From assembly GCA_964437785.1 (NCBI GenBank), contig CAYTJL010000046.1, forward strand, positions 32,439 through 47,286: a stretch of 14,848 nucleotides of DNA, given 5' to 3'. Shown in pieces: positions 1 to 13,061 of this stretch (position 1 is its first letter; each line of letters begins with the position of its first letter). The translations under genes and the position numbers were made by a program. The notes under the pieces were generated by a model. That model saw nothing but the letters and a program-made list of their open reading frames with translations. It had not been told where the DNA came from and did not search any database. Source of the stretch: an uncultured Polyangiaceae bacterium (GTDB taxonomy: Bacteria > Myxococcota_A > Polyangia > Polyangiales > Polyangiaceae).

Positions 1-1259
1 CGATCGAGCCCAAGATCCTCCACCGCCTGGTGGAGGAGCTGCCCGCGCAACGGGTGATGAAGCTCTTCGAGGGTCTGCGCGTGAGCGCGCCCGAGAGCGG
101 CGTCCGCAAGGCGAACAACGCACGTACGCGCAAGCTCATCCTGCGGACCATCCTCGGCTCGCCGCGGCTCGAGCTGTGGTCGGTCAAGTACCGCGCCAAG
201 ATCGTCTCGGCCCTGCGCCACGCGTGGGGCGAGCGGAGGCTCGGTATCGTCCGGTCGATCCTGCAAAAGCCCGATGAGGCCCGCGACGCGAAGGAGCGCG
301 CGATCTTGCGCTCGCTCATCGACAAGCACGCTCCGCTCGACCGCGAGCGGGTGTACGAGTGCGTCGCGTTCATCCTCGGGATCCGCGAGCGCGTCACCCT
401 CCCTCTGCTCCTCGGCTTCCAGCTCGCCAAGGTCGATTTGACCGCCGGCCACAAGCTGCCTCCCGAGGTCTTGGAGGGTATCCGCGGCCGTTACCACAGC
501 GGCGTCGACAAGGCAGAGGTCCTCCGCCTCACCGCAGGATCGCTCACCAAGGCACAACGGCTCACCGTCCAGAAGAGGGCGGCCGAGGCGGGCGTCGTGG
601 TGGAGATGGACCCCTCGCACTACGACGCGGTCAAGCTCTATGTCTACGCCTTCGAGAACGGGCTCACCCCCGCCATCGAGGAGGCGCTCGACAAGCGGGC
701 TCGGCGCGCGGCGGCGGCCTTCCCGGCGCGTTTTTCGCGGATTGGCATCCTCGTCGACGCGTCTCGGTCCATGATGGGCGGCGGTGATCAAAAGCTCCGT
801 CCCATGGCCATCGCGCTCGCGCTCCGCGACATGCTCATGCACGTCGCAGACGCGCGCGTGGTCTACGCGGGTGGCGAGTCGGGCGCCGTCAACGGCAGCG
901 CGAGGCTCATGCGGCCGAGCGGGGACTCCTCGCTCTCCGAGGGGCTCTTGACGCTGCTCGGCGGCGACGCCGAGGCCATCTTCGTGATCAGCGATGGTTA
1001 CGAGAACCGCCCTCGCGGCCGCTTCGCGGAGACCCTCTCCGCGGCGCGGAGCATCGGTGTGAGCACGCCCGTCTACCACCTCTCTCCGGTCTTCGCGGCC
1101 GAGTCGGGCGGCGTGCGCGCGCTCGCCGAGGGCCTCGCGCCGACCCTCCCCGCGGTAAGCCCGGAGGCGCTCGGTATCTCGATGTTGCGCGGCCTCCTCG
1201 CGGCCGATCCCATTCGTGGGCTCGTGTCGCTGGTCCACGCCGCGCTCCCCCGTGTCTAA
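1..1259 (+). CDS. vWA-domain protein with MIDAS motif, 5' end probably outside the window
   Basis: The frame is open from nt 3 through the GTG at 30, so the gene likely starts upstream. The C-terminal half has GILVDASRSM (DxSxS MIDAS) and later IFVISDGYEN, typical of a von Willebrand A fold. The N-terminal part is helical and Arg/Leu-rich. A TROVE/Ro-like relationship is possible but cannot be shown by eye. Confidence 0.6.
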   Translation, partial: IEPKILHRLVEELPAQRVMKLFEGLRVSAPESGVRKANNARTRKLILRTILGSPRLELWSVKYRAKIVSALRHAWGERRLGIVRSILQKPDEARDAKERAILRSLIDKHAPLDRERVYECVAFILGIRERVTLPLLLGFQLAKVDLTAGHKLPPEVLEGIRGRYHSGVDKAEVLRLTAGSLTKAQRLTVQKRAAEAGVVVEMDPSHYDAVKLYVYAFENGLTPAIEEALDKRARRAAAAFPARFSRIGILVDASRSMMGGGDQKLRPMAIALALRDMLMHVADARVVYAGGESGAVNGSARLMRPSGDSSLSEGLLTLLGGDAEAIFVISDGYENRPRGRFAETLSAARSIGVSTPVYHLSPVFAAESGGVRALAEGLAPTLPAVSPEALGISMLRGLLAADPIRGLVSLVHAALPRV

Positions 1260-1273
1260 AGGAGGATCAAACC

Positions 1274-2227
1274 ATGTCTCTCACCGTTCATGAGATCCTT
1301 CGGGGCACCGGCGTTGGGCACGTGCAGAGCGCGGGCCTCATGCAGGTGATCCCGATCCTCGGCGAGGATGACGACACGTTTGCTCCCCCGGAGCTCACGG
1401 TCGGCACCTCGGGATATGGCACCGTCCTTCTGCGCAACGACAGTGACCGGCCCACCATCGTCCCCACGGCGGCGGGCTGGGTCGTGGCGCAGAGGGCACA
1501 GGACCACGCGATCGGCAGCGGCGTCTTCTTGAAGCCCAAGGAGAGCCGCGCCATCGACACCGCGATGTGCGTGCAGCAAGGCCAAGGCGGATACATCGCA
1601 GAGGACAAGCACGGGATGCTCATCCTGCCTGCCGCCCTCCGGCCCAAGGCGCTCAGCGTGCGGAACGAGAAGAGCTTCAACAAGCTCTGGGCCAGCATCA
1701 CCGAGCTCAACAAGAGCGTTGGTCTCACCGAGGCTGGACATCTCGAGTACTTCCTCAAGGGCTTCCAAAAGGAGCTCGATGAGTTCGTCGCCGAGTTCGA
1801 GATCGTGCCGAAGCAACGCGGCGCGATCATCCTCATCGGCGGCGAGATCGCGGGCGTCGAGATCGCCCCTTCGAGCGCCTATTGGGAGGTCGTGTGGACC
1901 CCGCTCATCCGGGTCTGCTACGGCTCTCTCGCGGCGAGCGCGCGCAAGCGCGGCCTCCAAAGGCCACAGACCCGCGCGCCGCTGCGGCTCGTCGATCGCT
2001 CGATTGACGGCATCCGCGACGCGCTCGTTCGCGCCGAAGAGGAGGAGGGTCGCTCGGTCATGCGCACGTTCGCTGCGCTGCACGGGCTGCCCTTCGAGGT
2101 CGCCGGGGCCCCCGACGACCGCATCAACGGCATCCTGCTCACCACGGTCGCGAACGCGCGGCTCAGCGGGCAAGTCGTGAGGACCGGCTTCAAGGTCCTC
2201 TACGCCTCGCTCTGCGCGGCCGCCTGA
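1274..2227 (+). CDS. conserved hypothetical protein, coupled to the vWA gene
   Basis: AGGAGG (1260-1265) lies 8 nt before ATG 1274 and directly after the TAA of the upstream gene. The codon bias is GC3-rich. Motifs GLMQVIPILGEDD, LLRNDSDRPTIVPTAAGWVV and AMCVQQGQGGY resemble, from memory only, an uncharacterised bacterial family labelled ARPP-1-like or DUF in databases. No catalytic motif was recognised. Confidence 0.6.
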   Translation: MSLTVHEILRGTGVGHVQSAGLMQVIPILGEDDDTFAPPELTVGTSGYGTVLLRNDSDRPTIVPTAAGWVVAQRAQDHAIGSGVFLKPKESRAIDTAMCVQQGQGGYIAEDKHGMLILPAALRPKALSVRNEKSFNKLWASITELNKSVGLTEAGHLEYFLKGFQKELDEFVAEFEIVPKQRGAIILIGGEIAGVEIAPSSAYWEVVWTPLIRVCYGSLAASARKRGLQRPQTRAPLRLVDRSIDGIRDALVRAEEEEGRSVMRTFAALHGLPFEVAGAPDDRINGILLTTVANARLSGQVVRTGFKVLYASLCAAA

Positions 2228-2247
2228 CGCGACCTTCACCCCCGAGC

Positions 2248-2275
2248 CTCCCTCTCCCGCTCACGGGAGAGGGGG
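2248..2275 (+). terminator. GC-rich hairpin after the two-gene operon (terminator-like, no U-tract)
   Basis: CCCTCTCCCG (2250-2259) pairs with CGGGAGAGGG (2264-2273) around the loop CTCA. Two further pairs are possible. The hairpin starts 21 nt after the stop codon at 2225-2227. Confidence 0.45.
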
Positions 2276-2287
2276 AGTCGGGATCTC

Positions 2288-2361
2288 GTCCCTATCGGCT
2301 ACCTTGGATAGGCTTTCGGAACCTCACTCCGAAGAAGCGGGTTCGACTCCCGCTGGGGACG
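2288..2361 (+). tRNA. tRNA-Glu(CUC), C33 variant
   Basis: Acceptor GTCCCTA/TGGGGAC with one G.U pair. D-stem GGCT/GGCT (two G.U) with a 10-nt GG-containing loop. Anticodon stem TCGGA/TCCGA, loop ACCTCAC, anticodon 2323-2325. T-arm GCGGG-TTCGACT-CCCGC. Discriminator G followed by CC. The ends (GTCCC...GGGGACGCC) resemble bacterial tRNA-Glu. Confidence 0.8.
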
Positions 2362-2411
2362 CCGTTACGCCGAGCTGCCGAGAGACCTCTCGCTCGCGGC
2401 AGCTCTCCTTT

Positions 2412-2481
2412 CTCTCTGTCTCAGCGGACTGAGCACCGGGCTACGAACTCGGTTGTCGAGGTTCAACTCCTCGCAGAGAGG
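2412..2481 (+). tRNA. tRNA-Arg(ACG) with minimal D-arm
   Basis: Perfect acceptor CTCTCTG/CAGAGAG. D-arm CTCAG-CGGA-CTGAG (2420-2433), a tetraloop. Anticodon stem CCGGG/CTCGG, loop CTACGAA, anticodon 2443-2445. T-arm CGAGG-TTCAACT-CCTCG. Length 70 nt. Confidence 0.7.
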
Positions 2482-2487
2482 CTATGT

Positions 2488-2558
2488 ATCCCCGTCCCGG
2501 CGGCCCCGGGCGCGAGCCTCCGAAGCTCGTTGTTCGGGTTCGACTCCCGGCGGGGGTG
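2488..2558 (+). tRNA. tRNA-Arg(CCG) with minimal D-arm
   Basis: Acceptor ATCCCCG/CGGGGGT with one G.U. D-arm CCCGG-CGGCC-CCGGG (2496-2510). Anticodon stem CGAGC/GCTCG, loop CTCCGAA, anticodon 2520-2522. T-arm TCGGG-TTCGACT-CCCGG. Discriminator G followed by CC. Length 71 nt. Confidence 0.7.
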
Positions 2559-2568
2559 CCGTGATTTT

Positions 2569-2649
2569 GGGGCGAGCGCCGGCGCGCAGGTTGGTCTGTA
2601 AAACCGACGTCTTTGGACATGTTGGGTTCAACTCCCAGGCGCCCCACCA
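2569..2649 (+). tRNA. tRNA-Tyr(GUA), class II variable arm, minimal D-arm, CCA encoded
   Basis: Acceptor GGGGCG(A)/(G)CGCCCC. D-arm GCGC-CGGC-GCGC (2576-2587). Anticodon stem TTGGT/ACCGA, loop CTGTAAA, anticodon 2598-2600. Long variable arm GTC-TTTG-GAC (2609-2618). T-arm TTGGG-TTCAACT-CCCAG. A73 followed by CCA (2647-2649). Confidence 0.7.
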
Positions 2650-2655
2650 ACGTTA

Positions 2656-2724
2656 TGCAGGAAGGGAAGGTCCCGGCGGAGGCTCATACCCTCGGCTCTG
2701 CAAGTTCGATTCTTGCTCCTGCTA
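2656..2724 (+). tRNA. tRNA with CAU anticodon (Met or Ile2 type), minimal D-arm, U1.U72 mismatch
   Basis: Acceptor (T)GCAGGA/TCCTGC(T). D-arm GGGA-AGG-TCCC (2664-2674). Anticodon stem (G)GAGG/CCTC(G), loop CTCATAC, anticodon 2685-2687. T-arm GCAAG-TTCGATT-CTTGC. A73 followed by CC. Length 69 nt. Confidence 0.6.
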
Positions 2725-2725
2725 C

Positions 2726-2794
2726 CGCGATGACTCATGGTGAGGGGCGGCTCTCATAAGGCCGGCCGCGAGGGTTCGAATCCCTCCATCGCGA
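2726..2794 (+). tRNA. tRNA with CAU anticodon (Met or Ile2 type), minimal D-arm
   Basis: Perfect acceptor CGCGATG/CATCGCG. D-arm CTCA-TGG-TGAG (2734-2744). Anticodon stem CGGCT/GGCCG, loop CTCATAA, anticodon 2755-2757. T-arm GAGGG-TTCGAAT-CCCTC. A73 followed by CC. It starts 1 nt after the discriminator of the previous tRNA. Confidence 0.7.
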
Positions 2795-2798
2795 CCCT

Positions 2799-2875
2799 CT
2801 GGGTGTGGCTCAATTTGGTAGAGCGCCGGCGTCGGGAGCCGGAAGTTGGGGGTTCGAATCCCTCCATCCAGACCA
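2799..2875 (+). tRNA. tRNA-Pro(CGG), canonical cloverleaf, CCA encoded
   Basis: Acceptor CTGGGTG/CATCCAG. D-arm GCTC-AATTTGGTA-GAGC. Anticodon stem CCGGC/GCCGG, loop GTCGGGA (U33, G37), anticodon 2833-2835. T-arm GGGGG-TTCGAAT-CCCTC. C1-G72 and A73 as in bacterial tRNA-Pro. CCA at 2873-2875. Confidence 0.9.
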
Positions 2876-2876
2876 C

Positions 2877-2949
2877 GCGGGATGAGCGAGCTGGCGAACG
2901 CAGCGGTCCCACACACCGCCTCCGCAGGGTTCGATCCCCTGATCCCGCA
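2877..2949 (+). tRNA. tRNA-Val(CAC), C33 variant
   Basis: Perfect acceptor GCGGGAT/ATCCCGC. 3-bp D-stem GCG/CGC with a GG-containing loop. Anticodon stem GCGGT/ACCGC, loop CCCACAC, anticodon 2910-2912. T-arm CAGGG-TTCGATC-CCCTG. A73 followed by CC. Confidence 0.8.
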
Positions 2950-2962
2950 CCGAAGAACCAAC

Positions 2963-3038
2963 GGGGTATGATGGCCTGGTTGACCTGAGCTCTCCGATAA
3001 AGAGCTCGCGCCGCGTTCGATCCGCGGATACCCCACCA
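2963..3038 (+). tRNA. tRNA-Ile(GAU), C33 variant, CCA encoded
   Basis: Perfect acceptor GGGGTAT/ATACCCC. Weak D-stem with a TGGTTG loop. Anticodon stem GCTCT/AGAGC (extendable to 7 bp), loop CCGATAA, anticodon 2996-2998. T-arm CCGCG-TTCGATC-CGCGG. A73 followed by CCA (3036-3038). Confidence 0.8.
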
Positions 3039-3045
3039 TCACGAT

Positions 3046-3118
3046 GCGGGGCTCGCTCTCTGGCGAGAGCACCGGCGCGACGAGCCGGCCGAGGTGGGTT
3101 CGATCCCCACGCCCCGCA
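3046..3118 (+). tRNA. tRNA-Val(GAC), C33 variant
   Basis: Perfect acceptor GCGGGGC/GCCCCGC. D-arm GCTC-TCTGGCGA-GAGC. Anticodon stem CCGGC/GCCGG, loop GCGACGA, anticodon 3079-3081. T-arm GTGGG-TTCGATC-CCCAC. A73 followed by CC. Confidence 0.8.
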
Positions 3119-3123
3119 CCCAT

Positions 3124-3200
3124 GTCCATGTGGCGAAACTGGCAACCGCAACGGTCTCAGAAACCGTGATTTGAGGGTTCGAATCCCTCCGTGGACACCA
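3124..3200 (+). tRNA. tRNA-Leu(CAG) with short (5-nt) variable region, CCA encoded
   Basis: Acceptor GTCCATG/CGTGGAC with one G.U. Leu-type D-arm GCG-AAACTGGCAAC-CGC. Anticodon stem ACGGT/ACCGT, loop CTCAGAA, anticodon 3158-3160. Variable region GATTT only. T-arm GAGGG-TTCGAAT-CCCTC. A73 followed by CCA. Confidence 0.8.
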
Positions 3201-3223
3201 ACGCATCCATCATCGTCTCTCGC

Positions 3224-3298
3224 GTCCGTGTGGCGAAATTGGCAAACGCAGCGGCCTCAAACCCCGCCAATATGAGGGTTCGACTCCCTCCATGGACA
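3224..3298 (+). tRNA. tRNA-Leu(CAA) with short variable region
   Basis: Close paralog of the previous gene. Acceptor GTCCGTG/CATGGAC with one G.U. D-arm GCG-AAATTGGCAAA-CGC. Anticodon stem GCGG(C)/(C)CCGC with a C.C at 31:39, loop CTCAAAC, anticodon 3258-3260. 6-nt variable region. T-arm GAGGG-TTCGACT-CCCTC. A73 followed by CC. Confidence 0.75.
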
Positions 3299-3311
3299 CC
3301 CGCAATTTTAC

Positions 3312-3396
3312 GTCACCGTGGCGGAATTTGGCATACGCGACGGCCTGAGAAGCCGTGCCCGAAATGGGTATGTGGGTTCGACCCCCACCGGTGACA
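3312..3396 (+). tRNA. tRNA-Leu(GAG), canonical class II with long variable arm
   Basis: Perfect acceptor GTCACCG/CGGTGAC. D-arm GCG-GAATTTGGCATA-CGC. Anticodon stem ACGGC/GCCGT, loop CTGAGAA, anticodon 3347-3349. 15-nt variable arm CCC-GAAAT-GGG. T-arm GTGGG-TTCGACC-CCCAC. A73 followed by CC. Length 85 nt. Confidence 0.88.
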
Positions 3397-3471
3397 CCGC
3401 GCGAAGCAGCGCCCTTTGGAGAAAAACAAGCCATGAAAAAGAAGAGGTAGAGGTCAATAAACCTCGAGGAG

Positions 3472-3999
3472 ATGGAGAGTATGAGCGCGCAGACATTGCT
3501 CCTGACACCGTGGATGATGCCCCACAAGGTCATCTCCTGGCAGACCGCCGTCACCATGACATTTTTGGGGAAGGTCGAGGTCATCGCCGAATACGACGAG
3601 GCCATCTGCTCCCCCAGCACCAGCATCCGCACGCCGTCCGTCGTCCGGCTCAAGAGGCCGCTCGGCGACATGAAGCGTGGAGTCAAGTTCTCCCGCGTCA
3701 ACGTCTTCGTGCGCGACGGGTTCCGGTGCCAATACTGCGGTGACAAAAAGCGTGTCTCCGAGCTCAACTACGACCACGTCGTGCCCCGCGTGCAAGGCGG
3801 AAGGACCATCTGGGAGAACATCGTGACCTCCTGCTACGGCTGCAACTCTCGCAAGAGGGGCCGCACCCCGGAGCAGGCAGGAATGATGCTCCTCCGCAAG
3901 CCGGTCAAGCCGAAGTGGCTCCCGATGACCCCCGTCCTCCCACGGCACGGCAACGTGCCGGACGCGTGGGCCTCCTACTGCGCGGGCATGCTCCAGTGA
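3472..3999 (+). CDS. HNH endonuclease (small stand-alone HNH/McrA-like family)
   Basis: CQYCG...LNYDHVVPRVQGG...WENIVTSCYGCNSRK is a classic CxxC-H-N-CxxC HNH zinc-finger nuclease motif. The alternative start ATG 3481 has better spacing to GAGGAG at 3466-3471. The gene sits inside the tRNA array on the same strand. Confidence 0.88.
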   Translation: MESMSAQTLLLTPWMMPHKVISWQTAVTMTFLGKVEVIAEYDEAICSPSTSIRTPSVVRLKRPLGDMKRGVKFSRVNVFVRDGFRCQYCGDKKRVSELNYDHVVPRVQGGRTIWENIVTSCYGCNSRKRGRTPEQAGMMLLRKPVKPKWLPMTPVLPRHGNVPDAWASYCAGMLQ

Positions 4000-4015
4000 C
4001 CCGCGGCTCAAAAGC

Positions 4016-4053
4016 ACCTCGCTCGCCCCTCCCCAACGAGGGGCGAGCGGGGT
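4016..4053 (+). terminator. strong GC hairpin downstream of the HNH gene (terminator or processing structure)
   Basis: CGCTCGCCCCTC (4020-4031) pairs perfectly with GAGGGGCGAGCG (4038-4049) around the loop CCCAAC. The stem is extendable to about 16 bp. A T5 run lies at 4068-4072, 18 nt further on and not adjacent. Confidence 0.5.
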
Positions 4054-4072
4054 CGCCTCTCAACATCTTTTT

Positions 4073-4160
4073 AGAAGGTGAACCGGCCGGGGCGCCGGGC
4101 CTGTCTGGAACACAGCGCGAACGGCGATGACCGTTTGAGGATCGAGACCTCCGCCTTCTG
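4073..4160 (+). tRNA. tRNA-Ser(GGA), 8/4 (Sec/allo-tRNA-like) architecture
   Basis: 8-bp acceptor AGAAGGTG/CGCCTTCT with one G.U. Linker AA. 5-bp D-stem CCGGC/GCCGG with a 6-nt loop. Anticodon stem CTGT/ACAG, loop CTGGAAC, anticodon 4107-4109. Variable arm AACGG-CGATGA-CCGTT. 4-bp T-stem GAGG/CCTC with loop ATCGAGA. G73 followed by CC. Confidence 0.75.
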
Positions 4161-4205
4161 CCCGTCCTTACGAATGGGACCCCATCGTGAATCAGCGTCG
4201 GAATT

Positions 4206-4292
4206 GGAAGCGTGAATCGGCCGGGGCGCCGAGCCCGCCTTGAAAGCGGTGCGCACCCTTCGGGGTGTGGGGATCGAGACCTCCACCTTCCA
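4206..4292 (+). tRNA. tRNA-Ser(UGA), 8/4-like architecture
   Basis: Acceptor GGAAG(C)GTG/CACCTTCC, 8 bp plus one bulged C. D-stem TCGGC/GCCGA. Anticodon stem CCGC/GCGG, loop CTTGAAA, anticodon 4241-4243. Variable arm CACCC-TTCG-GGGTG. T-stem GGGG/CCTC with loop ATCGAGA. A73 followed by CC. Confidence 0.72.
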
Positions 4293-4316
4293 CCCCTCGT
4301 TTTTTACTGAACCTTT

Positions 4317-4404
4317 GGAAGCGTGAATCGGCCGGGGAGCCGAGCCTGCCTCGAAAGCAGTGCGCACCCCTTCGGGGTGTGGGGATCGAGACCTCCACCT
4401 TCCG
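4317..4404 (+). tRNA. tRNA-Ser(CGA), 8/4-like architecture
   Basis: Near-duplicate of the 4206-4292 gene. Same acceptor with a bulged C. D-stem TCGGC/GCCGA. Anticodon stem CTGC/GCAG, loop CTCGAAA, anticodon 4352-4354. Variable arm with a TTCG-type loop. T-stem GGGG/CCTC with loop ATCGAGA. G73 followed by CC. Confidence 0.72.
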
Positions 4405-4409
4405 CCTCT

Positions 4410-4494
4410 GGAAGCTGAATCGGCGGCGGCGCCGAGCCCGGCTGCTAACCGGTGTGTGCCTCATCGGCATGGTGTTCGACTCACCCTGCTTCCG
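4410..4494 (+). tRNA. tRNA-Ser(GCU), 8/4 architecture with 6-bp D-stem and tetraloop
   Basis: Acceptor GGAAGCTG/CTGCTTCC, 8 positions with one T.T. D-arm TCGGCG-GCGG-CGCCGA. Anticodon stem CCGG/CCGG, loop CTGCTAA, anticodon 4444-4446. Variable arm TGCC-TCATC-GGCA. 4-bp T-stem GGTG/CACC with canonical loop TTCGACT. G73 followed by CC. Confidence 0.75.
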
Positions 4495-4499
4495 CCTCT

Positions 4500-4574
4500 G
4501 CGGGGCTCGTTCAACGGGCAGGACAGTAGGCTTTGACCCTATCAATCGCGGTTCGAATCCGCGGCCCCGTGCCA
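4500..4574 (+). tRNA. tRNA-Gln(UUG), canonical cloverleaf, CCA encoded
   Basis: Acceptor GCGGGGC/GCCCCGT with G1.U72. D-arm GTTC-AACGGGCA-GGAC. Anticodon stem GTAGG/CCTAT, loop CTTTGAC, anticodon 4533-4535. T-arm CGCGG-TTCGAAT-CCGCG. G73 followed by CCA. A weak 1:72 pair plus G73 fits bacterial tRNA-Gln. Confidence 0.85.
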
Positions 4575-4732
4575 TCACCCGACCGCGACCGCGACACGGC
4601 TGCCATGCCCGCTCGCGCGCCGCCCGCATAATCAGCCCCAAAACCAGGCCCCAAACGCGCGGCACGAGATATGGAAAGCGTTAGGATGGATGGTAGGATG
4701 ACTTGATTCTTCCGCTTCCTCTTCGCCGCACC

Positions 4733-5632
4733 ATGAAGCCCTCGCCCCGACTCTCCCCTTCGATCCTCATCATCGCCGCGATCACCTTCGCCGCCGTAGG
4801 CTGCGGGAGTTTCCGGATCGTCGCGAACGAAGACAACCCCGATGTCAAAGGGATGCCGGGCGGGACCTCGTCAGGCGTCGGATCGAGCGGCAGCTCCTCG
4901 GGCCAAGGCGGCGCGTCGAGCGGCGGATCAGGGGGCGGATCGGGCGGCAACATCCCCATCGATCAACAAGAGGACCTGCTCCCGATCGACGGGAGCTACA
5001 GCTACCTCTGCGGCGCGCCCACGGACATGTGCGTCCCGGGCCCCGATGACTCGTGCGCGCTCGGCGGCGATCCCCAAATGGGCGCCCCAGACAGCAGCGT
5101 CGTCGGATGCCAGCTCGTCCCCTCCGGCAACGACGTCCACGCGGTGTGCGCAGCGACAGGCACGTTCGGCGTCGAGCAACCGTGCACGACCTCCGCGGAC
5201 TGCCAACCCGGCCTCGGGTGCGTCGAGACCGCCGCCCTCGGCAAGTGCAGGCCCTATTGCTGCGGCGATCTCGAAGCGTGCGCCGCGGACAGCTATTGCG
5301 CGCCCGCCAAGATGAACGGCGAGAGCATCCCGATCCCCACGTGCACGCCCGTGATCCCGTGCGAGCTCTTGAACGACGTGACGTGCCCGACCGGCCTCAC
5401 GTGCGCCATCGTCCGCACCTCGGGCCTCACGAGCTGCGTCAAGCCGGGCGACGGGTACGACGATCAGGCGTGCCCGTGCGCGGCCGGCTACTACTGCCGC
5501 CCCGCGACGAGCACGTGCGTCAAGCTCTGCCACACGGGCCCGGGCTCGGACGACTGCGGCCCGACCGCGGTCTGCCAAGGCGGCGTGAACGGCATGTACC
5601 CGAACGGCTTCGGCACCTGCGTCCCGTACTGA
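4733..5632 (+). CDS. secreted cysteine-rich lipoprotein
   Basis: From ATG 4733 the sequence is MKPSPRLSPSILIIAAITFAAVGC: a positive N-region, a hydrophobic core and a lipobox AVG-C. It is followed by a Gly/Ser linker and a domain of about 200 aa with about 30 Cys. The TTG at 4703 in the ORF track is less likely to be the start. Confidence 0.7.
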   Translation: MKPSPRLSPSILIIAAITFAAVGCGSFRIVANEDNPDVKGMPGGTSSGVGSSGSSSGQGGASSGGSGGGSGGNIPIDQQEDLLPIDGSYSYLCGAPTDMCVPGPDDSCALGGDPQMGAPDSSVVGCQLVPSGNDVHAVCAATGTFGVEQPCTTSADCQPGLGCVETAALGKCRPYCCGDLEACAADSYCAPAKMNGESIPIPTCTPVIPCELLNDVTCPTGLTCAIVRTSGLTSCVKPGDGYDDQACPCAAGYYCRPATSTCVKLCHTGPGSDDCGPTAVCQGGVNGMYPNGFGTCVPY

Positions 5633-5651
5633 AATCAGCGCAAAAACAAGC

Positions 5652-6587
5652 TCAGAACGAGCCCACCGCGAAGGCGCCGACCGACGTCGCGGTCCACGCG
5701 GGCATCACGATCACGCTCGCGGACGCGGGCTTCTTGGTCGCGCGCGCGAGGAGCACCGCGCCCGTCACCACGCCCGCGATCCCGAGGCCGCCGAGCACCG
5801 CGCCGCTCGCGCGGAGCGCGTTGATCGACGTCACCTCGCTCGTCACGTGATCGCGCTGATCCGCCGGGCACGAAGGCCGGGTCGGGCCCCCGCACAGATC
5901 ATCGAGCTTGCCGCCTTTGACGTACGAGAGCGCGAGCAACGTCGCGCCCGTGATGAGCGCCGCGCCCGACACCCCCGTGATCACCGCGCCCGGCACCACG
6001 AGCTGCGCGCCGCTCCCCGCCCCGCCCGCCGCGGGCGCGAGCGCGAGCGCGAGGCTGCGTTTGTCCTTCTCTTCGAGCGTGAACGGGAGGTCCTGCGGCG
6101 CGAGCCCAGGCGCCTCCGCGTGCAGCGTGTGCGCCCCCGGATCGAGCGGGATGCCCGCGTTGAGCCACACCTGCTTGCCGTCGATGGTGATCGTCAACCC
6201 AGGCCGCTCGTCGCCCTTCACCGTGACGATCGGGATGCGCGGCGAGAGCCCGGCGATGAGCTCCTCGGCGACCTTCGCGACCTCTTTTTGCGACGACGCG
6301 TTGGCCCGCGCGAGGCCGCGCTCGTACGACGCCTTCGCCGCCACGAGCTTGCCGAGCTTCTCGTGCGCAGCGCCCGCGCGGAGATGGAGCTGCGGCGTCT
6401 CCTTGATGGCGAGCGCGGCCTCGAACTTGGCGAGCGCCGTCGCGTAGTCCCCCTTCTTCTCGGCGTCCTCGCCCTCTTTGAACGCCTGCTTCGCGGCCGC
6501 GATCTCGTTGGGGGTCTGCGCGGTCGCAACGCTGCTCGATACGACGATCGCGAGCGCCGCCGCGCACAGGAACGTGGTGCGCTGCAT
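5652..6587 (-). CDS. exported TPR-like / membrane-anchored protein
   Basis: N-terminal signal peptide MQRTTFLCAAALAIVVSSSVATA-Q. One or two TPR-like helical pairs (KKGDYATALAKFEAAL, LVAAKASYERGL). Gly/Ala-rich hydrophobic segments near the C-terminus. Divergent from the kinase gene. Confidence 0.6.
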   Translation of the reverse strand: MQRTTFLCAAALAIVVSSSVATAQTPNEIAAAKQAFKEGEDAEKKGDYATALAKFEAALAIKETPQLHLRAGAAHEKLGKLVAAKASYERGLARANASSQKEVAKVAEELIAGLSPRIPIVTVKGDERPGLTITIDGKQVWLNAGIPLDPGAHTLHAEAPGLAPQDLPFTLEEKDKRSLALALAPAAGGAGSGAQLVVPGAVITGVSGAALITGATLLALSYVKGGKLDDLCGGPTRPSCPADQRDHVTSEVTSINALRASGAVLGGLGIAGVVTGAVLLARATKKPASASVIVMPAWTATSVGAFAVGSF

Positions 6588-6678
6588 TAGGGGCCGAGGA
6601 TGATAGCGGATCTCGGGGCGCGCTTCGCCAGGTTGCTTGACCCGAGCAGGGGCGAGCCTTCACGATGGACCGGCCCTG

Positions 6679-8856
6679 ATGAAATCCGGCGAGGTCATTG
6701 CTGGCAAATACCGGCTCGACAAGAGGCTCGGTGTCGGGGGCATGGGCGAGGTCTGGCGCGCCGCGCACACCGGCACGGAGCGGGCCTACGCCATCAAGTT
6801 CTTGCACGCGCACGCCGCCGAGTCCGCGAGCGCGCGGCACCGCTTCACGCGGGAAGCAAAGGCCTCGGCGAAGATCAACCACGCGAACATCATCGACATC
6901 TTCGACGTCGGCGAGCTCCCCGAGGGCACCCTCTACCTCGCGATGGAGCTGCTCGAAGGCGTGTCGCTCGCGGACGCGTTCCACGCCTCACCGCCGCTCA
7001 GCGTTCAAGATTTGCTCGTCGCCATGCGCGACACCGCCGAGGGGCTCGCCGCCGCGCACGCGGTCGGCATCGTCCACCGCGACGTCAAGCCGGCGAACAT
7101 CTTCCTCCACAAAGACCGCGCGACGGGCTTCGTCGCCGTCAAGCTGCTCGACTTCGGGATCAGTAAATTCGGCGACGAGACGGGCTCCACCAAGGCGGGC
7201 TCGGTGCTCGGCTCGCCCCGGTACATGAGCCCCGAGCAGACACGCCACGCCTCCAAGGTCGACGCGCGCACCGATCTCTGGGCCGCGGGCGTGATCTTGT
7301 TCGAAGGCCTCACGGGCACCTTCCCGCACGAGGGCGACAGCTTCAGCTCGCTCGTGGTCGCGATCATCACGCAGGAGCCCATCTCGATCGATCAGCTCGC
7401 GCCGGGGTTGCCCGAGCCCGTCCGCGCGATCGTGCGCGACCTCATAAAGCCGATCGACGAGCGCATCCAGACCGCGACCGAGCTCGTCGCGCGCATCAAC
7501 CAAGCGCTCACCGATCCAGCGATCGCGCGCATCCCGCTCCCTCGCCCGCTGCACCCGCCCGCGGGCGAGAGCGTGCGCACCGCGACCGGCCTCCGCATGA
7601 GGCCGCTCGGCGATCCGGGCAGCACAGGCGCGATCCGCGTCTCGCAGCCGCTCGTCGATCCAGGGAGCACAGGCGCGATCCGCGCCGCGCAACCCGGCCT
7701 GCCCGCGCCGAGCGCGACGCAAAACAGCGCTCCTCAGCCCGCGTCACGCATGTCATCGCCGGGCTTCAACGCCGCGTCCGCCGACCAGCCGCGCGCGCCC
7801 ACCTTCGGCGCTCCGCCCGCCGCGCCTACGTTCGGCGCGCCTCCGGCCGCTCCGTCGTTCGGCGCACCACCGCAACCCGGCGCGCCGATCAACCCCTACG
7901 GCGCCACGCACAAAGTCCAGAACCCGGTCGAGCTGCTCCGCGAAGCGCAGGCGATCGCCTCAAAATCAAGCCAAGCGGCGCCATCTCCGCCGCCGCCCGC
8001 GCAGGCTTCGCAGACCGAGCGGCCCGCGGCCCCGGCGATCGAATCACCGCCCGCGCCGCCGCCTCCGCCGCCGCGGCCGCCGTCCTCGTCGCTCCCCGAC
8101 GAGGCGACCGCGATCGTCGCCGACCCGAGGATGCAAGGCGATTCGCGCGCGTCCATCCCCACCGACATGCGCGCGTCGAGCGTGGGCTTCGGCGCTCCCT
8201 CGGCGACCGGATCGTTCCGCGCGACGAACAAGACGCTGCCGATCAGCGCGACCGCGCACCTCCAAGCCGAGCTCGCCAAGGCGCGCGAGGAGTTCGAACG
8301 ACAACAGTTCACCAGCGCGCCGACGACGCCGGCCTTCGATCCGCGCATCTCGCAGTCGGCCGCGCGCGTGTCCATGCCCGACCCGCTCGTCGGGACGGCG
8401 TCGGCGATGAGCCTTCCTTCGCCCACGGATCCCCGCGCGCAGGCCCCGAACGCGGTGGCGCCGATGGGCGCGCCGGCCGCGATCCCGCCTCACGACGCCG
8501 CGCCTCCGGGCACGGGATCGGCGCTCAAGATCGCGGCCCTCGTGCTCTCCGTCGTGCTCATCGGGATCGTGATCGCGATCATCGCGACGCTCCGATCGTC
8601 GAGCGGCGACGAGCGCGCGCCCGCGGCGTCCGCGTCGGCCACGCCCGTGTCGAGCGCGCCCGCGCCCGCTCCGTCGCCGACCGAGAGCGCTCCGCCCGCG
8701 CCGACGGCGAAGGCCGAAGAGCCCTCGCCGGCCGCGAGCGCGAACGCGCCCGCGCCGTCCGGGACCTCGACCTCCGCGCCCACCAAGACCAAGGCCGAGA
8801 AGGGCAAGGCGGGCTCTCCGTCGTCCAAGGTAAAGAAGCTCGGTTCGGGGTTGTGA
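6679..8856 (+). CDS. Hanks-type Ser/Thr protein kinase with Pro-rich linker and one TM helix
   Basis: G-loop LGVGGMGEVW, YAIKFL, catalytic loop HRDVKPANIF, DFGISK, GSPRYMSPEQ. These are followed by about 350 aa of Pro/Ala/Ser-rich sequence, the TM helix ALKIAALVLSVVLIGIVIAIIATL and a PAS-rich tail. ATG 6679 is preferred over TTG 6637. Confidence 0.9.
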   Translation: MKSGEVIAGKYRLDKRLGVGGMGEVWRAAHTGTERAYAIKFLHAHAAESASARHRFTREAKASAKINHANIIDIFDVGELPEGTLYLAMELLEGVSLADAFHASPPLSVQDLLVAMRDTAEGLAAAHAVGIVHRDVKPANIFLHKDRATGFVAVKLLDFGISKFGDETGSTKAGSVLGSPRYMSPEQTRHASKVDARTDLWAAGVILFEGLTGTFPHEGDSFSSLVVAIITQEPISIDQLAPGLPEPVRAIVRDLIKPIDERIQTATELVARINQALTDPAIARIPLPRPLHPPAGESVRTATGLRMRPLGDPGSTGAIRVSQPLVDPGSTGAIRAAQPGLPAPSATQNSAPQPASRMSSPGFNAASADQPRAPTFGAPPAAPTFGAPPAAPSFGAPPQPGAPINPYGATHKVQNPVELLREAQAIASKSSQAAPSPPPPAQASQTERPAAPAIESPPAPPPPPPRPPSSSLPDEATAIVADPRMQGDSRASIPTDMRASSVGFGAPSATGSFRATNKTLPISATAHLQAELAKAREEFERQQFTSAPTTPAFDPRISQSAARVSMPDPLVGTASAMSLPSPTDPRAQAPNAVAPMGAPAAIPPHDAAPPGTGSALKIAALVLSVVLIGIVIAIIATLRSSSGDERAPAASASATPVSSAPAPAPSPTESAPPAPTAKAEEPSPAASANAPAPSGTSTSAPTKTKAEKGKAGSPSSKVKKLGSGL
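7603..7684 (+). repeat. 45-nt tandem coding repeat (two copies) inside the kinase linker
   Basis: CCGCTCGGCGATCCGGGCAGCACAGGCGCGATCCGCG (7603-7639) versus CCGCTCGTCGATCCAGGGAGCACAGGCGCGATCCGCG (7648-7684). They encode PLGDPGSTGAIR and PLVDPGSTGAIR. Confidence 0.85.
7795..7872 (+). repeat. three roughly 24-nt tandem coding repeats (APTFGAPPA) inside the kinase linker
   Basis: The translation reads APTFGAPPA-APTFGAPPA-APSFGAPP. The DNA copies have diverged at synonymous positions. Confidence 0.8.
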
Positions 8857-8886
8857 CGGCCATGCGCCGCTGGTAGGCCCGCGGCC

Positions 8887-9669
8887 ATGACTGCCTTCGA
8901 GCTCATCTCCGTCGAGCGATCGGGCGCGATCGCGACGGTCACCGTGCAGCGCCCCGACAAGCTCAACGCCCTCAACAGCCGCGTGATCGCGGAGCTCTCG
9001 CGCGCGTTCGGCGACCTCGTCGCGAGCGGCGACGTCCGCGCCGCGATCCTCACCGGCGCGGGCCGCGCGTTCGTCGCGGGCGCCGACATCGCCGAGATGG
9101 CCGAGCTCCCGACGGCCGAGGCCAAGCGCTTCTCGGACGCGGGGCACGCGCTCTGCGCGCTCATCGAGTCCGCGCCGTTCCCCGTGATCGCCGCGGTCAA
9201 CGGCTTCGCGCTCGGCGGCGGCTGCGAGATCGCGCTCGCGTGCGACTTCATCTACGCCGCCGACAACGCGAAGCTCGGGCAGCCCGAGGTGAGCCTCGGC
9301 GTCATCCCCGGCTTCGGCGGCACGCAGCGGCTCCTTCGACGGGTGGGCGCGGCGCGCGCGCGCGAGCTCATCTACACGGGCGACACGATCACCGCCGATC
9401 AAGCCCTCGCGATGGGCCTCGTCAACGCGGTGCTCCCCGCCGCCGAGCTGCTCGATCGCGTCCGCGCGGTCGCCGAGAAGATCGCGCAGAAGGGCCCGAT
9501 CGCGATCGCGTACGGCAAGCGCGTGATGCTCCGCGGCGAGCCGCTCGACATGCCCGCCGCGTGCGAGCTCGAAGCGCAGGCGTTCGCGTCGCTCTTCGGG
9601 ACCGAGGATCAACGCGAGGGGATGCGCGCGTTCCTCAGCAAGAATAAGCCTGCTTTCAAGGGCAAATGA
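8887..9669 (+). CDS. enoyl-CoA hydratase/isomerase (crotonase family)
   Basis: LTGAGRAFVAGADIAEM, AAVNGFALGGGCEIALACDF, QPEVSLGVIPGFGGTQRL and EGMRAFLSKNKPAF form the typical crotonase-fold signature, at the typical length of 260 aa. Confidence 0.9.
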   Translation: MTAFELISVERSGAIATVTVQRPDKLNALNSRVIAELSRAFGDLVASGDVRAAILTGAGRAFVAGADIAEMAELPTAEAKRFSDAGHALCALIESAPFPVIAAVNGFALGGGCEIALACDFIYAADNAKLGQPEVSLGVIPGFGGTQRLLRRVGAARARELIYTGDTITADQALAMGLVNAVLPAAELLDRVRAVAEKIAQKGPIAIAYGKRVMLRGEPLDMPAACELEAQAFASLFGTEDQREGMRAFLSKNKPAFKGK

Positions 9670-9672
9670 GGA

Positions 9673-10912
<1,240 letters not shown>

Positions 10913-10923
<11 letters not shown>

Positions 10924-12991: not shown

Positions 12992-13061
12992 GAGGTCAGC
13001 TTATCCGGTGACGGGCGCCGCAGATAGATCGAGCGCCCGCGCTCGTGTACTCTCGGCGCGC

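Follow-up and report, generated by a model that had tools for sequence, protein, structure and literature searches.

A serine block of (8/4) tRNA genes within a tRNA array on a Polyangia chromosome

We analysed a stretch of 14,848 nucleotides (the window), which is chromosomal DNA of a Polyangia myxobacterium. It carries 18 tRNA or tRNA-like genes, all on the plus strand, between positions 2288 and 4574 (2.3 kb, ∼8 per kb). The left part of this array lies beyond the window start, and the window begins inside an array-embedded gene. The features of the region are listed in Table 1. The calls in the upstream block were obtained from ARAGORN, a Rfam E-value scan and folds; many of its tRNAs are low-scoring or irregular, and numerous tRNAs of the array scored 32–39 bits against the Rfam tRNA model. 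An earlier, sequence-only reading had described four Ser units just behind an HNH gene, and both are present as described. That these Ser genes are one block of a far larger accessory tRNA array had been missed.

Table 1. Coordinates of the array features; gene limits run from nucleotide 1 to the discriminator in the tRNA genes
Feature	Position	Strand	Remarks
vWA-like protein gene, 3′ part (∼530 aa)	30..1259	+	Conserved partner of ARPP-1, inside the array; 66% identical to L245 8400–10004
ARPP-1 (PF20208) gene	1274..2227	+	Inside the array; homologs lie within tRNA arrays in L245–L249
Upstream array block	2288..3398	+	Glu, Arg ×2, Tyr-like unit, CAU unit, Met, Pro, Val, Ile, Val, Leu ×3
HNH (homing-type) endonuclease gene	3472..3999	+	PF01844, PF14279, phrog_16726; directly upstream of the Ser block, inside the array
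GC-rich hairpin, then T-run; terminator-like	4016..4061	+	Between the HNH stop and the first Ser gene
tRNA-Ser(GGA), unit 1 (W1)	4073..4160	+	8/4 cloverleaf; A1-U72; discriminator G; CCC follows, so CCA is not encoded
tRNA-Ser(UGA), unit 2 (W2)	4206..4292	+	8/4 cloverleaf; acceptor-stem C4211 bulged; discriminator A
tRNA-Ser(CGA), unit 3 (W3)	4317..4404	+	8/4 cloverleaf; C4322 bulged; discriminator G
tRNA-Ser(GCU), unit 4 (W4)	4410..4494	+	8/4 cloverleaf; U4416.U4487 is pair 7, G4417-C4486 is pair 8; discriminator G
tRNA-Gln(UUG), final array gene	4500..4574	+	In Minicystis, Thr and Gln hold the same position

The GC content of the array is 62–66%, compared with 68–74% in the flanks, which encode a PknB-like kinase, an enoyl-CoA hydratase and a TssM-like protein. 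We rejected the reading of the window as phage or prophage DNA on the basis of these host-type flanks, of the PHROG matches, which are confined to the HNH gene, and of the synteny with the Minicystis chromosome. ARPP-1 and the vWA-like gene were array-embedded in all six loci examined (the L248 homolog of the vWA-like protein gave a weak VWA_CoxE match), Ro60/TROVE was array-embedded in both Minicystis loci, and RtcB in L248. Rfam 'matches' to serC and to a miRNA near 4016..4061 were merely the GC-rich hairpin. No sigma-70-type promoter was found within the array, which is uninformative for a myxobacterium. Exact look-up of the HNH and enoyl-CoA hydratase proteins of the window returned no record, and a search of the plasmid collection gave just one irrelevant match of 150 bp.

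The four Ser units form one direct-repeat family. Their anticodon loops (CUGGAAC, CUUGAAA, CUCGAAA and CUGCUAA in units 1–4) present GGA, UGA, CGA and GCU, a set sufficient for all six Ser codons. In unconstrained RNAfold predictions the 8/4 cloverleaf was the minimum free energy (MFE) structure of units 1–3 (−36.1 kcal/mol for unit 1). It comprises an acceptor stem of 8 pairs, an AA linker, a 4-bp T-stem, a D-arm having a 5-bp stem and a 6-nt loop (the sixth position being C.C or C.A), a 6-bp anticodon stem with one 3′ bulge, and a variable stem of 6–7 bp. In unit 4 the D-stem has 6 bp and is capped by a tetraloop. The variable stem ranges from 5 to 7 bp across all four units and is closed by UUCG in units 2 and 3. 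Units 1–3 share the T-loop AUCGAGA; that of unit 4 reads UUCGACU. Two of the genes reach 8 acceptor pairs only with a bulged C (C4211 and C4322), and another has a U.U at pair 7 (U4416.U4487). The sequence-only reading had described the four anticodons, the 8-position acceptor stem with its bulges, the AA linker, the D-arm dimensions, the long variable arms, the T-stem, the T-loops and the discriminators G, A, G and G, and all of these were reproduced here.

G73 is an identity element for seryl-tRNA synthetase (SerRS), and it is present in three of the four window genes, the exception being the UGA gene, which has A73. The pair T54-A58 is universal in T-loops; both the A54/A60 T-loop and the G58 of the Minicystis copies depart from it. 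An encoded CCA is absent from the window copies, whereas 58 of 85 viral members have it.

Standard tools did not recognize these genes. ARAGORN called none of the four Ser units in the window, and the Rfam tRNA model (RF00005) did not match them even at E ≤ 10. The Rfam tRNA-Sec model (RF01852) matched unit 4 only, at 35.3 bits against a gathering score of 47. This is the comparison with the tRNA and tRNA-Sec models that had been suggested as a check of the 8/4 assignment.

A search with one T-arm motif yielded 85–86 distinct members on 61 viral contigs, a sample whose ascertainment depends on the A54-type T-arm. Of the 101 viral matches, ARAGORN called just 10. Each of the 85 distinct viral members has CGA, UGA, GCU or GGA as its anticodon; the discriminator is G in 77 of the 85, and G1-C72, G2-C71 and A3-U70 are nearly invariant among the viral homologs. 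The D-arm of the family has a 6-bp stem (columns 11–16 with 21–27) and a 4-nt loop, the anticodon stem has 6 bp with one bulge, and both stems covary. Direct, unannotated homologs occur in Caulobacter phiCbK-like phages, whose RefSeq records leave three 8/4 Ser genes without annotation, and in Ruegeria phage DSS3_MAL1. They were recovered from the phage collection in a sensitive-mode search; megablast with window positions 3400–5400 against that collection gave no match. When the 16-mer TGRGGATCRAGACCTC was scanned against bacterial genome contigs, all 120 returned loci were chance occurrences with no nhmmer match.

We then used 38 viral homologs to build a covariance model, R1, containing no window sequence. 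When the window genes were included in MAFFT alignments, their 5′ end fell out of register, as the bulged C there offsets a D-arm shorter by one nucleotide; R1 was therefore built from viral sequences only, and the bulge was placed by Infernal. The bulged-C column of the alignment is exclusive to W2 and W3. R1 detected the window genes at 77.5 (W1), 79.7 (W2), 80.1 (W3) and 73.8 (W4) bits (E ∼1e-17), and its next-best match in the window was at 21.7 bits.

Next, we asked which acceptor/T geometry the genes adopt. They could be ordinary 7/5 tRNA-Ser genes, or tRNA-Sec genes, drawn in the wrong register: the overall length and the long variable arm resemble those of class II tRNAs, unit 4 has its weak tRNA-Sec match, and the energies of the 8/4 and a 7/5-like fold tie in this unit. 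However, the 8/4 fold is better by 2.6–3.3 kcal/mol in the other three units, and the pair 49:65 required by the 7/5 fold is U.C in all four window genes. Covariation among the 38 homologs also selects 8/4. Their 8/4 cloverleaf is 96.9% paired, with both-sided changes in 25 of 29 pairs. The eighth acceptor pair (8:65; alignment columns 8:81) is formed in 38 of 38 (GC 23, UA 8, CG 4, AU 3), while the 7/5-specific pair (49:65; columns 65:81) is unpaired in 26 of 38. The near-invariant U in alignment column 65 is engaged elsewhere, since in 36 of 38 homologs it forms a G.U with column 48 that closes the variable stem. In addition, RF00005 finds no match, the tRNA-Sec score lies below gathering, the acceptor branch has 12 bp and not the 13 of tRNA-Sec, and the anticodons are those of serine and not UCA. 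The homolog covariation refutes the wrong-register reading, to which we attach hardly any probability. The 7/5 alternative that the sequence-only reading had set against its own fold is therefore neither equal nor better, and we conclude that the four units are real genes of the tRNA-Ser type whose acceptor/T geometry is truly 8/4.

The same organization exists on the Minicystis chromosome. The order vWA-like gene, ARPP-1, tRNA block, HNH, Ser GGA/UGA/CGA(/CGA)/GCU and Gln is common to the window, Minicystis rosea and a Minicystis metagenome-assembled genome. The syntenic M. rosea locus has 55 ARAGORN-called tRNAs and 5 uncalled Ser genes (∼60); this species has 88 annotated tRNAs overall, and more than half, ∼60, lie in a single array locus. 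Across 14 myxobacterial Ser genes the helices are 97.5% paired, with compensatory changes in 19 of 29 pairs. W4 is 86% identical to the Minicystis GCU ortholog, in which pair 7 is U.G. Within the window, W2 and W3 are 93% identical, and their anticodon stems differ by a double C-G to U-A change. The UGA isoacceptor looks to have been re-created from a CGA duplicate.

These comparisons bear on the possibility that the Ser genes are relics, that is, decaying tRNA pseudogenes of a horizontally acquired (phage-derived) array with no function in translation. Decay might account for the defects specific to the window (C4211, C4322, U4416.U4487, the A73 of the UGA copy and the unencoded CCA) and for the low scores of many adjoining array tRNAs, and the long tRNA arrays (L-arrays) studied to date are mostly silent or poorly transcribed (PMC8421152, 2021). 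It is less easily reconciled with helices that stay paired, through compensatory double changes, across myxobacterial genera, or with the A1-U72 of W1 and the W2/W3 anticodon-stem change, each compensated on both sides. The full set of four anticodons has also been kept, the UGA member apparently having been re-created, and the genes follow the order and spacing seen in Minicystis despite an identity of no more than 62–66% between the neighbouring proteins. The compensatory changes between the window genes and their Minicystis orthologs argue that the Ser genes are maintained, and we regard the relic reading as unlikely.

The HNH gene upstream of the Ser block has orthologs in Minicystis (74–75% identity) and homologs on viral contigs (43–53%). 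The 8/4 Ser genes were downstream of HNH in 12 of 17 loci, and the HNH-then-serine-tRNA module recurs on large phage contigs. The sequence-only reading had missed that this unit is common to phages. The presence of the HNH-Ser cassette in large phages as well suggests that the array derives from a phage or was otherwise mobile.

The tight and directional linkage of the HNH gene to the Ser block may also be viewed differently. The units could be tRNA-like RNAs with a non-translational role in an RNA-repair or conflict island, acting as toxin decoys or substrates, as partners of Ro60, vWA or ARPP-1, or as HNH homing targets. The recurrent company of ARPP-1, the vWA-like gene, Ro60/TROVE and RtcB described above would fit such a role; Ro60 partners are tRNA-like Y RNAs (PMC4201824), and some allo-tRNAs appear to be unused in translation, according to Mukai et al. 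(PMC5389517). Yet the anticodon loop of every family member has 7 nt, includes U33 and displays a serine anticodon, and the arrays keep complementary isoacceptor sets, as predicted by decoding and not by a decoy function. Conservation also extends to the SerRS identity features. Related 8/4 tRNAs are, moreover, translationally active in Escherichia coli (PMC5389517). A non-translational role appears very unlikely to us.

Most probably, the genes are genuine (8/4) tRNA-Ser genes forming the serine block of an L-array on a Polyangia chromosome, where they would act as a supernumerary Ser set. In this class the 12-bp acceptor/T coaxial helix is divided 8+4 instead of 7+5, beside a compact, tRNA-Sec-like D-arm, a 6-bp anticodon stem and a long variable arm. 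The present data directly establish the structure of the genes and their place in the family, together with their serine anticodons, synteny and compensatory evolution. The processing, charging, translational use and supernumerary role of the window genes we infer as follows. RNase P and 3′ processing enzymes would cut the precursors, and the CCA-adding enzyme would complete the CCA end because CC alone is encoded. SerRS would recognize the products by their long variable arm, by G73 and by the acceptor-end pairs G1-C72, G2-C71 and A3-U70, and would charge them with the anticodon left unread. EF-Tu and the ribosome would be expected to accept them because the acceptor/T helix keeps the canonical 12-bp length, and the set would then decode all six Ser codons as supernumerary tRNAs. 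The array would have come from a phage or other mobile source and then been kept by vertical descent in Minicystis-like myxobacteria. Since most L-arrays characterized to date are silent (PMC8421152), these tRNAs may add little to translation, or do so only under certain conditions. The 8/4 set may be called parallel to canonical serine tRNAs, as the sequence-only reading had it, only by analogy with supernumerary L-arrays (PMC8421152). Several departures from the family consensus count against the explanation as functional (8/4) tRNA-Ser genes: the two bulged Cs, the U.U, A73 in the UGA gene, A1-U72 in the GGA gene and the unencoded CCA. The T-loop that lacks the universal T54-A58 pair counts against it as well.

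A wider but doubtful reading is that the locus is a mobile back-up translation and RNA-repair island of jumbo phages and myxobacteria, combining the ∼60-tRNA array with Ro60/TROVE, the vWA-like/ARPP-1 pair and HNH. In such an island the tRNAs would have been reshaped, by the 8/4 split, the compact D-arm and the altered T-loop, so as to escape toxins or nucleases that recognize canonical tRNA-Ser and yet be accepted by SerRS, EF-Tu and the ribosome, and HNH, by homing, would carry the Ser cassette into alleles that lack the array or are canonical.

Irrespective of that reading, the finding is no new kind of tRNA, the 8/4 cloverleaf having been published in 2017. What is new is the context, namely the myxobacterial chromosomal array, its synteny with Minicystis and the HNH-Ser module common to phages. 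The 8/4 Ser family is far commoner than annotation implies. Given that ARAGORN calls only 10 of the 101 viral matches and that the phiCbK-like genes are unannotated, serine tRNAs are undercounted in the tRNA sets published for large phages and for bacteria with such arrays. Natural and complete 8/4 serine sets are available in tractable systems, the cultured M. rosea DSM 24000 and phages of Caulobacter vibrioides (crescentus) CB15. The results also connect the 8/4 class with long accessory tRNA arrays and with an HNH-Ser cassette that is conserved in phages and myxobacteria. This link offers a lead on how arrays spread and on why they hold structurally divergent tRNAs.

Canonical bacterial tRNA-Ser has a 7-bp acceptor stem, a 5-bp T-stem, U8 and a D-stem of 3–4 bp with a large G18G19 loop. 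The window genes differ from this 7/5 form (RF00005) by the AA linker, the compact D-arm and the U.C at 49:65. With tRNA-Sec (RF01852) they share the 8-bp acceptor stem, the two-nucleotide linker, the 6-bp anticodon stem and the long variable arm, and unit 4 and most of the family also share the 6-bp D-stem with its tetraloop. Charging by SerRS, a feature of tRNA-Sec, would be a further likeness. They are distinguished from tRNA-Sec (8/5, 13 bp, UCA) by the 8/4 split of 12 bp, the serine anticodons and the sub-gathering score.

The closest known system is the (8/4) tRNA-Ser, itself a subgroup of the (8/4) allo-tRNAs; Mukai et al. 2017 (NAR 45:2776; PMC5389517) describe it in bacteriophages, proteobacteria and rumen Clostridia, within tRNA gene clusters. 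A serine anticodon sets it apart from missense or nonsense allo-tRNAs, and the SerRS identity elements of the group are the long variable arm and a discriminator G73 or U73. The sequence-only reading had rightly pointed to this paper, although it overstated the novelty, 8/4 tRNA-Ser with serine anticodons being already a class described there; the class is known, and the window genes add a new member. According to that paper, 8/4 and 9/3 allo-tRNAs fold, are processed, are serylated and are used on the E. coli ribosome. The likeness extends to the 12-bp branch split 8+4, the long variable arm, G73, the tRNA-Sec-like long D-stem with a small loop, the extended anticodon stem, the serine anticodons and the location in tRNA gene clusters, among them clusters carried by phages that infect alpha-proteobacteria. 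Unlike the hosts that the paper lists, the window is a chromosomal array in Myxococcota, from a Polyangia relative of Minicystis. Relative to the (8/4) tRNA-Ser described in the paper, the peculiarities of the window genes are the two bulged Cs, the U.U, one A73, the A54/A60 T-loop and the one-nucleotide bulge of the anticodon stem. No (8/4) tRNA-His partner was detected in the window. The 'polycistrons of irregular tRNAs' of the same authors were considered and did not match, being described as acidobacterial, linked to toxin-antitoxin genes and provided with suppressor-type anticodons (PMC5389517).

Finally, the array as a whole resembles L-arrays and tRNA array units (PMC8421152, PMC4758250), the latter defined as at least 20 tRNA genes at a density of at least 2 per kb (Tran et al. 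2015, PMC4758250), with a single orientation as a further mark of such arrays. It is dense, same-stranded and non-periodic, has many different tRNA genes and contains an embedded homing endonuclease gene, for which all8564 of Anabaena is the L-array-linked example (PMC8421152). Supernumerary copies are an L-array trait (PMC8421152) that we ascribe to the window array by analogy. Signs of horizontal origin are seen here as in L-arrays, namely a GC content lower than that of the flanks and a module common to phages. Myxococcota, 8/4 serine tRNAs and Ro60, ARPP-1 or vWA genes within arrays are not mentioned in either paper (PMC8421152, PMC4758250). The Minicystis array, with ∼60 genes, is larger than the maximum of 43 quoted for L-arrays, and, whereas L-arrays are scattered sporadically, the array of the window and Minicystis has been kept syntenically across genera.

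We observed that four mutually related units, recovered in the window by repeat search (units 1–4; Table), carry the anticodons GGA, UGA, CGA and GCU. For units 1–3, the unconstrained RNAfold structure was the cloverleaf proposed in the sequence-only reading: an acceptor stem of eight positions, in which units 2 and 3 carry a bulged C; an AA linker; a D-stem of 5 bp closing a 6-nt loop; an anticodon stem of 6 bp with one bulge on its 3′ side; a variable stem of 6–7 bp; and a 4-bp T-stem, with no other unpaired nucleotides at the junctions. In unit 4, U.U forms pair 7 and G–C pair 8, and the 6-bp D-stem carries a tetraloop. The discriminators are G, A, G and G, and the T-loops are AUCGAGA in units 1–3 and UUCGACU in unit 4. 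Every detail claimed for this serine set was reproduced by repeat search and RNAfold, and the HNH gene placed beside it was verified by Pfam and PHROGs.

ARAGORN called 12 tRNAs at 2288–4574 of the window, in a same-strand array, and none within 4073–4494. The Rfam scan at gathering scores placed tRNAs on both sides of the serine block and none within it. Even a permissive Rfam scan of 3950–4650 gave no RF00005 match in the block, and the tRNA-Sec model matched only unit 4 (35.3 bits vs gathering score 47).

Table. Coordinates of the serine tRNA genes and associated features (L245, Minicystis rosea; L246, Minicystis MAG; L249, Deltaproteobacteria MAG; L247 and L248, further compared loci; L001, phage CcrRogue)
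Feature	Location	Strand	Evidence or remark
tRNA-Ser(GGA), unit 1	window 4073-4160	+	repeat search, fold, R1 77.5 bits
tRNA-Ser(UGA), unit 2	window 4206-4292	+	repeat search, fold, R1 79.7 bits
tRNA-Ser(CGA), unit 3	window 4317-4404	+	repeat search, fold, R1 80.1 bits
tRNA-Ser(GCU), unit 4	window 4410-4494	+	repeat search, fold, R1 73.8 bits
A54/A60 T-loops	window 4141-4147, 4273-4279, 4385-4391	+	
HNH gene	window 3472-3999	+	Pfam, PHROGs
Terminator-like hairpin	window 4016-4061		between HNH gene and first Ser gene
Tyr(GUA)-like class II unit, compact D-arm	window 2569-2646		missed by ARAGORN; tRNA-Sec 32.8 bits, R1 21.7 bits
CAU-anticodon unit, 6-bp acceptor stem	window 2656-2724		missed by ARAGORN
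tRNA-Val(GAC)	window 3046-3118		6-bp D-stem and tetraloop, as in tRNA-Sec
vWA-like/ARPP-1 pair	window 30-2227; L245 8400-10960; L246 8330-10900; L247 8397-10975; L248 8375-10969; L249 8423-10969		
8/4 tRNA-Ser CGA, GGA, GCU	L001 (NC_019408.1) 3502-3588, 3596-3682, 3690-3777		encoded CCA; RefSeq record unannotated

Sensitive BLAST returned matches, none of them annotated, in phage DSS3_MAL1 and in phiCbK-like phages of Caulobacter. The same architecture is shown by three CcrRogue genes and two DSS3_MAL1 genes, each ending in N73-CCA, which occupy gaps in the annotated tRNA arrays; the CcrRogue spot was also matched in CcrBL10, RBC63, RBC8, RBC11, BL64 and BL57. Scanning IMG/VR with the conserved T-arm motif and then with nhmmer returned 143 hits, giving 86 distinct full-length sequences from 61 loci; all 120 loci returned by a parallel motif scan of bacterial genomes were chance matches. 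Among the 85 parsed members of the family, the anticodon is always CGA, UGA, GCU or GGA; 77 have G as discriminator and 82 an AA linker, and the eighth acceptor pair is invariably Watson–Crick (G–C 41, U–A 20, C–G 13, A–U 11). ARAGORN called just 10 of the 101 family hits across the viral loci.

T-loop positions 54 and 60 (columns 70 and 76 of the family alignment) co-vary with one exception in 85: A54 occurs together with A60 (AUCGAGA, AUCAAGA) and U54 with U60 or C60 (UUCGAGU, UUCGACU), in a sample biased to A54 by the search motif. The A54/A60 combination is otherwise best known from eukaryotic initiator tRNA. In Minicystis, G also occupies position 58 of the genes for GGA and CGA (GUCGGGA, AUCGGGA). 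Just 5′ of the CcrRogue genes (~3350–3497) are units resembling His(GUG) and Cys(GCA) tRNAs, likewise without annotation. Directly after the two DSS3_MAL1 genes (MN602268.1, ~3586–3676) lies an odd tRNA-like unit without an obvious standard anticodon loop, the ends of which can pair over 9 bp (CUUCUUCCG...CGGAAGAAG) before CCA; it might be a 9/3-type allo-tRNA.

A covariance model from 38 viral sequences, with the window sequences excluded (R1), matched all four units at full length (73.8–80.1 bits; next match within the window 21.7 bits). The rival canonical 7/5 drawing requires an extra T-stem pair, which is U.C in all four units, and forcing a 7/5-like fold cost 2.6–3.3 kcal/mol in units 1–3 and gave a tie in unit 4. 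In the alignment of 38 viral sequences, the 8/4 structure is 96.9% paired, both sides have changed at 25 of the 29 pairs, none of 500 shuffles reached the observed values, and sliding the partners by one column lowered pairing to ~50%. Pair 8:81 is never unpaired, whereas 26 of the 38 sequences leave the 7/5-specific pair 65:81 open; the conserved U at 7/5 position 49 closes the variable stem as G.U in 36. We consider the homologs decisive for 8/4 over 7/5. The 7/5 drawing was refuted by the U.C pair, the fold energies and the homolog pairing, and the earlier 8/4 interpretation was right.

Allo-tRNAs with 8/4 or 9/3 acceptor branches were defined by Mukai et al. 2017, who showed that both forms undergo processing, are charged with serine and serve translation on the E. 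coli ribosome (PMC5389517). These authors place (8/4) tRNA-Ser in tRNA gene clusters of bacteriophages, proteobacteria and rumen Clostridia, a distribution restated in a 2020 review. Since the geometry, the tRNA-Sec resemblance and the serine identity were all reported by Mukai et al., the window adds new members to a described class, and novelty cannot be claimed for the 8/4 serine geometry. New here are an apparent chromosomal L-array in Myxococcota, an HNH–Ser cassette shared with phages and the widespread lack of annotation.

The flanks show no phage character: the upstream side encodes ARPP-1 (PF20208) and a vWA-like protein, the downstream side a PknB-like kinase, a TssM/IcmF-like type VI secretion protein and an enoyl-CoA hydratase, and PHROGs matched nothing in the window except HNH. 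One database entry matches the window ARPP-1 at 100% identity; the closest named relatives of this protein are from Minicystis rosea and Myxococcota MAGs (~62% identity). The M. rosea locus (CP016211.1) has the same gene order: a protein of 534 aa (66% identity with the truncated first ORF of the window), ARPP-1, a 2.1-kb tRNA block, the HNH gene and a 0.8-kb gap. In this gap ARAGORN called no tRNAs, and R1 found five 8/4 Ser genes (67–85 bits) in the order GGA, UGA, CGA, CGA, GCU, with Thr and Gln after them. The Minicystis MAG shows the same arrangement with four Ser genes, and the Deltaproteobacteria MAG has one. Because these loci match in arrangement, the window probably covers the right-hand end of a long, putatively accessory array of tRNA genes conserved in Polyangia chromosomes. 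The M. rosea locus has 55 ARAGORN tRNAs in ~13 kb, with an embedded Ro60/TROVE-vWA gene, and thus holds more than half of the 88 tRNAs reported for this organism (PMC8436480).

The L-array concept covers long, non-periodic arrays of supernumerary tRNA genes that have spread horizontally, often in linkage with a homing endonuclease (PMC8421152), and the Polyangia array would fit it; neither that paper nor the earlier array survey (PMC4758250) mentions Myxococcota or 8/4 serine tRNAs. The conserved vWA-like (~530 aa) and ARPP-1 gene pair lies, in this order, inside a tRNA array at all six loci examined. Ro60/TROVE-vWA genes occur near it at both Minicystis loci, whereas at L248 its neighbours include RtcB and endonuclease V; we found no paper describing tRNA arrays that contain genes for ARPP-1 or Ro60. 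The GC content is 62–66% in the array (window 2001–5000) and 68–74% in the protein-coding flanks (5001–13000). In Minicystis, unlike in the window, genes for FtsJ and ribosomal protein L3 come after the array, so the genera differ at its right-hand junction.

The array overall is composed of atypical tRNAs (Table). Counterparts of the Tyr-like unit occur in M. rosea (L245 1298–1380 and 1434–1516; R1 38.5 bits). For tRNA-Val(GAC), the tRNA-Sec model (34.9 bits) outscores the tRNA model, and several further array tRNAs reach merely 32–39 bits on RF00005. A weak Rfam match to the Y RNA-like YrlA (window 2747–2845; 29.7 bits vs gathering score 69) overlaps Met and Pro tRNA genes and probably reflects mere tRNA resemblance; it is of note that the orthologous Minicystis array encodes Ro60, the Y-RNA partner.

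When aligned to R1, the 14 myxobacterial Ser genes are 97.5% paired, with double-sided changes at 19 of 29 pairs, and none of 500 shuffles reached the observed value for four of five measures; this pairing is kept despite neighbouring proteins being only 62–66% identical. Orthology with M. rosea is evident: unit 4 is 86% identical to the M. rosea GCU gene, units 2 and 3 are ~80% identical to its CGA gene, and unit 1 is 73% identical to its GGA gene. Unit 2 (UGA) is 93% identical to unit 3 (CGA), from which it differs in the anticodon stem by a compensated C–G to U–A change, whereas its identity with the UGA gene of Minicystis (L245 13802–13883) is just 63%. The ancestral UGA gene seems to have been lost in the window organism and the isoacceptor re-created from a CGA duplicate by an anticodon switch, which would be the expected product of selection for a complete decoding set.

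Both the pairing record and this apparent re-creation argue against units 1–4 being decaying relics. In favour of decay are the bulged C exclusive to units 2 and 3 (an insertion in an otherwise perfect GGAAGGUG/CACCUUCC stem), the U.U at pair 7 of unit 4 where its orthologs have U.G, the A73 of the UGA gene and the encoding of CCA by none of the four copies. Weighing the signs of maintenance against these defects, we consider it likely that units 1–4 function as 8/4 tRNA-Ser genes within an accessory array; relics are improbable, and a non-translational role is even more so. The parallel serine system proposed in the sequence-only reading is plausible.

By tblastn, the window HNH has orthologs in the Minicystis loci (74–75% identity) and full-length homologs in nine viral loci (43–53%). 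Family members lie downstream of an HNH homolog on the same strand at 12 of 17 non-window loci, the first being 6–200 nt away in 7 of these, and upstream only for the two most distant homologs; as the viral loci were ascertained via the Ser T-arm motif, the co-occurrence is partly built in, but the orientation and immediate adjacency are not. Several of the HNH–Ser viral contigs are of jumbo-phage size (100–390 kb). From orientation, adjacency and contig size, we concluded that the HNH–Ser cassette is a module common to large phages and myxobacterial arrays. This sharing agrees with the spread by homing endonucleases that has been proposed for L-arrays and T4 SegB (PMC8421152).
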